64,000 nucleotides of DNA from Neocallimastix sp. 'constans' (lineage: Eukaryota). Location of the stretch: assembly GCA_050613775.1 (NCBI GenBank), contig JBODTK010000015.1, forward strand, positions 62,001-126,000, written 5' to 3'. A model generated the notes under the pieces. The model did not search any database. It had not been told where the DNA came from and saw only the letters and a program-made list of their open reading frames with translations. How positions within the stretch are numbered: position 1 is the stretch's first letter; each line of letters begins with the position of its first letter. Of this stretch, positions 50,968 through 51,099 are shown piece by piece. Made by a program: the position numbers and the translations under genes.

Positions 50968-51099
50968 TGTAATAGCTATACTAAAACTAAAATTAATTAA
51001 TATAACTATTATCTACAATTTTAATATTATGTAAAAATAATATTAAAATTGTAGATAATAGTTATATTAATTAATTTTAGTTTTAGTATAGCTATTACA
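50968..51099. repeat. Perfect inverted repeat, 63-bp arms with 6-nt loop, replacing the 5' LTR
   Basis: 50968-51030 is the exact reverse complement of 51037-51099. Confidence 0.95.

Follow-up and report, generated by a model that had tools for sequence, protein, structure and literature searches.

A perfect U5 palindrome at the 5' LTR position of a Ty3/gypsy element beside a tRNA-Met gene, possibly the remnant of two opposed insertions

A Ty3/gypsy element just upstream of a tRNA-Met gene in the window (the whole 64-kb stretch of DNA analysed here) carries a perfect 132-bp palindrome at the position of its 5' LTR. The palindrome was confirmed in the letters of the assembly. Our tentatively favoured explanation, to which we give a probability of roughly 0.48, is that this end is the remnant of two insertions of the same family, in opposite orientations at one tRNA-anchored target, that were collapsed by a deletion. 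The odds of this and of the three other routes discussed below are a matter of judgement.

The palindromic end and the element behind it

The palindrome is made of two perfect 63-bp arms around the loop GTAAAA, and its part in native order is identical across 84 bp to the end of the 3' LTR (56879-56962). These values, the native hairpin of only 15 bp in the intact LTR and the CAGAA on both sides had been given in the initial annotation and were all recomputed; its anatomy of two U5-type ends, no 5' promoter and a join at the native hairpin holds. There are four perfect hairpins with arms of at least 14 bp in the window, the longest being this palindrome and the next having arms of 17 bp, and block shuffles of 44000-51600 gave longest arms of 10-13 bp in 20 of 20 trials. 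Only one non-low-complexity 16-mer of LTR positions 1-960 is found in 50400-51700, and it lies inside the upstream neighbour, indicating that U3 and R are absent from the 5' end of the element. Their loss removes the predicted promoter and self-primer, and the copy is predicted to be dead in cis despite its intact reading frame.

Table 1. Features of the element with the palindromic 5' end and of its surroundings
Feature	Position	Strand	Basis or remark
Left half of uncollapsed inverted pair: related solo LTR, TSD CAATG	41171..42085	-	
Right half of uncollapsed inverted pair: related solo LTR, TSD CAATG	43852..44820	+	
Left TSD, CAGAA	50963..50967	+	its CA is the end of the upstream TG..CA repeat 50178-50964
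Perfect palindrome, 132 bp, at 5' LTR position	50968..51099	.	sequence computation
Final 48 bp of U5, inverted	50968..51015	-	sole letters out of native order
Terminal 84 bp of a normal LTR	51016..51099	+	from left arm of 15-bp U5 hairpin on
Predicted self-priming PBS, 13 nt	51099..51111	+	complement at 56654-56666 in LTR
Unbroken gag-PR-RT-RNaseH-IN frame, no chromodomain match	51692..55939	+	ORF and domain search
Putative polypurine tract	55910..55934	+	purine content and position
Intact 3' LTR, 1028 bp, TGTAA..TTACA	55935..56962	+	
Predicted self-primer and start of R	56654..56666	+	motif kept in related LTRs at 28090, 30079, 44522
Native 15-bp U5 hairpin	56879..56914	+	first of two conserved stems
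Right TSD, CAGAA	56963..56967	+	-15 to -11 relative to mature tRNA
tRNA-Met(CAT) gene, likely insertion anchor	56978..57050	+	

Gag, protease, RT, RNase H and integrase are encoded in a single intact frame, in the domain order of Ty3/gypsy and with rve and Integrase_H2C2 domain matches, and the other traits of that group, a TG..CA 3' LTR, a putative polypurine tract (PPT) and a 5-bp target site duplication (TSD; CAGAA), are present. A DIRS identity is rejected by the DDE-type integrase and the TSD, and a MITE identity by the RT, the same integrase, the TSD and the full 3' LTR. No Pfam match to a chromodomain was found in the element, whose frame stops 56 aa past the last GPF/Y, and the precomputed domains of 18 homologues include none either. 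The match between the LTRs in direct orientation is limited to 84 bp, and with two full direct LTRs lacking this is a defective copy of its family. We note that tandem repeats of 36 bp lie within the frame at 53052-53240, in the protease-RT interval, and preserve the reading frame.

The putative PBS is complementary to a site within the LTR itself, and in the predicted leader the two pair with a probability of 0.52-0.96. The minimum free energy fold of that leader has the primer:PBS duplex closing a multiloop with U5 stems, and the two flanking duplexes of the three-duplex 'pretzel' leader known from the Tf1/sushi group are not clearly visible in it; the U5 hairpin pairs with a probability of ~1. 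The U5 stems persist in two related solo LTRs despite letter changes, so that the hairpin is a family feature and not a product of the event that made the palindrome. The self-primer-like motif at 28090, 30079, 44522 and 56654 is preceded by a TATA-like box and a short inverted repeat, and the LTRs that carry it, which are otherwise ~67-80% alike, would belong to a putative self-priming clade without a chromodomain.

All 18 Gag-protease homologues are 50-66% identical to the element, and the only named one is labelled Orpsp1_1, which we take to be an anaerobic gut fungus. The GC content of 20% and the faecal nature of the samples with matching sequence both agree with a gut-fungal host. In run X1, six contigs cover ~4.3 kb of the element interior with 11 differing letters, at a depth of ~350 as against 20-40 for incidental contigs, a hint that the family is young and multi-copy. 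A protein-guided metagenome scan gave, among the best 80 of 379 loci, a top locus that is 63% identical and 79 others at 28-44%; no recognisable LTR end was seen in the 620 + 260 letters viewed at the top locus. The same kind of scan gave no matches in viral contigs or prokaryote genomes, and exact patterns were not found for the hairpin plus U5 in metagenome contigs, for the U5-PBS junction in prokaryote genomes or for the self-primer motif in viral contigs.

tRNA genes and stacked LTRs in the window

The 3' LTR ends 15 bp upstream of the tRNA-Met gene. The Rfam matches in the window are three tRNAs and nothing else, and an LTR ends ~11-15 bp upstream of each of these genes (7741-7826, 24120-24205 and 56962-57050). 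Several unrelated LTR families, with 4-bp and 5-bp TSDs, are stacked in register upstream of the tRNA genes, and six junctions of the form LTR-CA / 4 nt / TG in the window show the same-register stacking. This suggests Ty3-like Pol III targeting in what is likely a gut fungus.

The other delimited LTRs with 5-bp TSDs (39870-40675, 41171-42085 and 43852-44820) have the TSD CAATG in all three cases, and two of them are oppositely oriented, indicating that the same 5-bp target is re-used in both orientations. CAATG overlaps the LTR end of its neighbour by two letters, as CAGAA does at the palindrome. The opposed pair, 41171-42085(-) and 43852-44820(+), is 88% identical, with 1766 bp between its members and CAATG outside both; its longest direct repeats, of 17 bp, are the U5 hairpin arms, and a deletion at those arms would leave a 44-bp remnant between two CAATG.

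Several other features of the window were recorded. The left neighbour of the palindrome, the TG..CA repeat 50178-50964, has very high contig depth over 50400-50900 in all four runs compared. The tRNA called Ile(TAT) at 7741-7813 is 96% identical to the tRNA-Met(CAT) at 56978, and by this likeness is likely a Met gene with an altered anticodon. Further young Ty3/gypsy elements at 732-6985 and 7826-15148 have LTRs that are 100% and 99.4% identical, respectively, 4-bp TSDs and PBSs that begin with TGG, and are likely tRNA-primed. Arrays of a 14-bp unit lie within an inverted repeat pair, 18 kb apart, at 28588-28886 and 47057-47430.

Possible origins of the palindrome

Collapse of a head-to-head pair would have begun with A, an LTR or element of the same family that lay in reverse orientation within the stack and was flanked on its outside by CAGAA. 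The present element would then have inserted forward at the same register beside the tRNA-Met gene, duplicating CAGAA again; the facing LTRs would have formed a kilobase-scale inverted repeat, and replication would have slipped across its stem between the arms of the 15-bp hairpin, which read as direct repeats when one LTR is reversed and the other forward. A deletion computed at the left hairpin arm yields 50968-51099 letter for letter, with the loop GTAAAA and a perfect TSD. The 15-bp arms are the joint longest of 83 exact matches of at least 10 nt between the LTR and its own reverse complement; of the 53 matches of at least 6 nt within the outermost 150 nt of each arm, they are the longest, ahead of one of 10 nt. 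The geometry of an uncollapsed precursor is present in the window in the pair 41171-42085(-)/43852-44820(+). Elsewhere, two insertions at one site have been reported to preserve the TSD, with head-to-head dimers rarer and thought to be unstable (10.1101/158386), a perfect 1.3-kb palindrome is reported to be fragile in yeast (PMC3681665), and copy-choice between short repeats is described as the mechanism by which a Tn10 derivative undergoes nearly precise excision (PMC12524634).

Collapse requires two insertions and one deletion, however, and no precursor allele was seen. The identity of the arms across 63 bp requires A to have been a closely matching copy, and since a deletion at the right arm would give another loop, the observed loop fits only half of the collapse outcomes. 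Moreover, the 64-kb window contains no second collapsed remnant, its 88% identical pair is still uncollapsed, and the reverse-transcription routes yield identical letters.

Those routes make up the strongest rival, a possible though less probable accident of reverse transcription that yielded a U5/U5 cDNA, which integrase then inserted, all in a single step. The initial annotation read the end this way; the reading is possible, but at least two other routes lead to identical letters. Two versions fit: by reasoning, the final minus strand could fold back at the hairpin and stall at the CA before the PBS, or a truncated minus strong-stop DNA of 48-63 nt could re-prime on a second minus strand and act as a false plus strong-stop, an intermolecular route that was computed to reproduce the sequence. 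The plain version of the proposed template switch, self snap-back of minus strong-stop DNA, is excluded, as it would leave the loop TTTTAC, not GTAAAA, on the plus strand. A reverse-transcription accident takes one event against three for collapse, accounts for the exact TG end and for a TSD at the usual distance from the tRNA gene, and could use a U5 hairpin that is predicted to form almost always in the leader. In HIV-1, LTR asymmetry made by reverse transcription is reportedly common, at 26 of 88 proviruses, with inversions in two (PMC9278108), and a copied PBS overhang has been reported on about half of Tf1 cDNA (PMC11042837). Ty3 intasomes function with two identical ends: one LTR-terminus duplex was used to assemble them, and they integrated at a tRNA gene in vitro (10.1101/2021.07.27.453949); by the same study, the idea that the U3 end may be dispensable, also raised at first, would not be new. 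On the other hand, the fitting routes demand an exact stall or a two-molecule switch, and the perfect TSD does not single out a U5/U5 insertion, given the repeated use of one 5-bp target by LTRs of either orientation in this window. Among the titles and abstract openings that searches of the open-access literature brought up, none describes such an integrant or end.

An extended form, in which self-priming elements recurrently make U5/U5 cDNAs, is doubtful. The minus strand would fold at the conserved U5 stem and stop at the CA, the PBS complement would mimic the retained self-primer overhang of a normal U5 end, integrase would insert the product at the tRNA target in vivo, and several gut-fungal copies would exist with different TSDs. 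The Tf1 self-primer is reportedly retained. A form that replicates as a palindrome is rejected: its 5' end has neither R nor primer, and normal reverse transcription would be expected to rebuild both LTRs from the 3' LTR.

It is improbable that the palindrome is an artefact of assembly or polishing, the true structure being a normal 5' LTR or an uncollapsed long inverted repeat that was shortened. The region is AT-rich, the left flank is a repeat of very high depth, and in a comparison of the contigs of 4 of 24 listed runs with 50400-56160, none of the 32 pieces listed spans either palindrome junction. One contig (X3 record 19) matches from precisely 51016 onwards and has 172 other letters ahead of that point, as expected of a normal LTR, but it differs at 6 of 85 U5 letters and is likely another copy. 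The link from the flank and U3 to the inverted U5 is only 5 bp (TGTAA), not enough for a graph jump; a fold-back within a read would continue into the PBS or the flank instead of stopping at CA, and the ORF is unbroken. Neither a flank-to-U3 joint nor a strand-changing joint is among those listed from the four runs; a joint of 51012 to 50983, seen in two runs and carrying 24 other letters, resembles a chance match in AT-rich sequence. The public contigs neither confirm nor refute the junctions.

Least probable, and very unlikely, is a double replication switch after insertion in one normal element, the nascent strand folding at the hairpin, copying U5 back and returning via TGTAA/TTACA. It would give the same letters, with 15 bp of microhomology available for the first switch and 5 bp for the second, but the return competes with at least 336 other return diagonals with at least 5 bp of homology within 60 nt of extension (133 with at least 6 bp), making an exact terminus-to-terminus landing unlikely.

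Significance and relation to known systems

On either of the two leading readings this is one copy, predicted to be inactive, and likely a one-off accident of known kinds. Collapse, if true, would illustrate a way in which inverted pairs are lost from LTR stacks that are dense and precisely targeted, and would caution against taking a perfect TSD at an unusual end as proof of one integrase event. A reverse-transcription accident, if true, would make the palindrome a relic of a rare kind of cDNA end and would hint that two U5 ends are sufficient in vivo, as already shown in vitro for Ty3. The stacking of several LTR families 12-15 bp upstream of tRNA genes in a likely anaerobic gut fungus, with one family predicted to be self-priming and having no chromodomain match, is perhaps a more useful lead than the palindrome, and no paper on tRNA-upstream LTR stacks of gut fungi was found in a search of the open-access literature.

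Among known elements, the fission yeast retrotransposons Tf1 and Tf2 share with this one a single gag-pol ORF without CCHC, and Tf1, Tf2 and Tj1 all share with it a 5-bp TSD and a PBS complementary to a site within the LTR, as in the Tf1 self-priming scheme (PMC10085805). Insertion immediately upstream of tRNA genes is also a trait of Tj1 (PMC5911963). The element described here differs from Tf1 and sushi, which are chromoviruses, in having no chromodomain match, and from Tf1, Tf2 and Tj1 in its 1-kb AT-rich LTR and in the lack of U3-R at the 5' end of this copy. Ty3 is tRNA-primed, whereas the present element is predicted to be primed by its own RNA. Insertion upstream of tRNA genes, here with the TSD at -15 to -11, is reported for both Ty3 and DGLT-A (PMC5911963).

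The palindrome itself resembles the ends of several other kinds of transposon. DIRS, MITE and Ginger elements have inverted terminal repeats at their ends, and DIRS elements use a tyrosine recombinase and have no DDE integrase or TSD; the 63-bp inverted terminal repeats found here are similar in position, but they look accidental, and the window has just one copy of them. Tn10 is a long inverted repeat in which each arm has a short inverted repeat near its outer end, and deletion leaves a small palindrome between target repeats. Its nearly precise excision is like the favoured collapse in that the join lies inside a short terminal inverted repeat and the palindromic remnant is bounded by the target repeat, but Tn10 is a bacterial DNA transposon that is lost entirely, while here the body and 3' LTR of one partner remain. 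The double-insertion dimers of Drosophila P and R1 likewise arise when one target is hit twice and the TSD is preserved, with head-to-head pairs under-represented; inverted tandems were set aside in that study, and the parts of it available to us describe no collapsed LTR pair (10.1101/158386).
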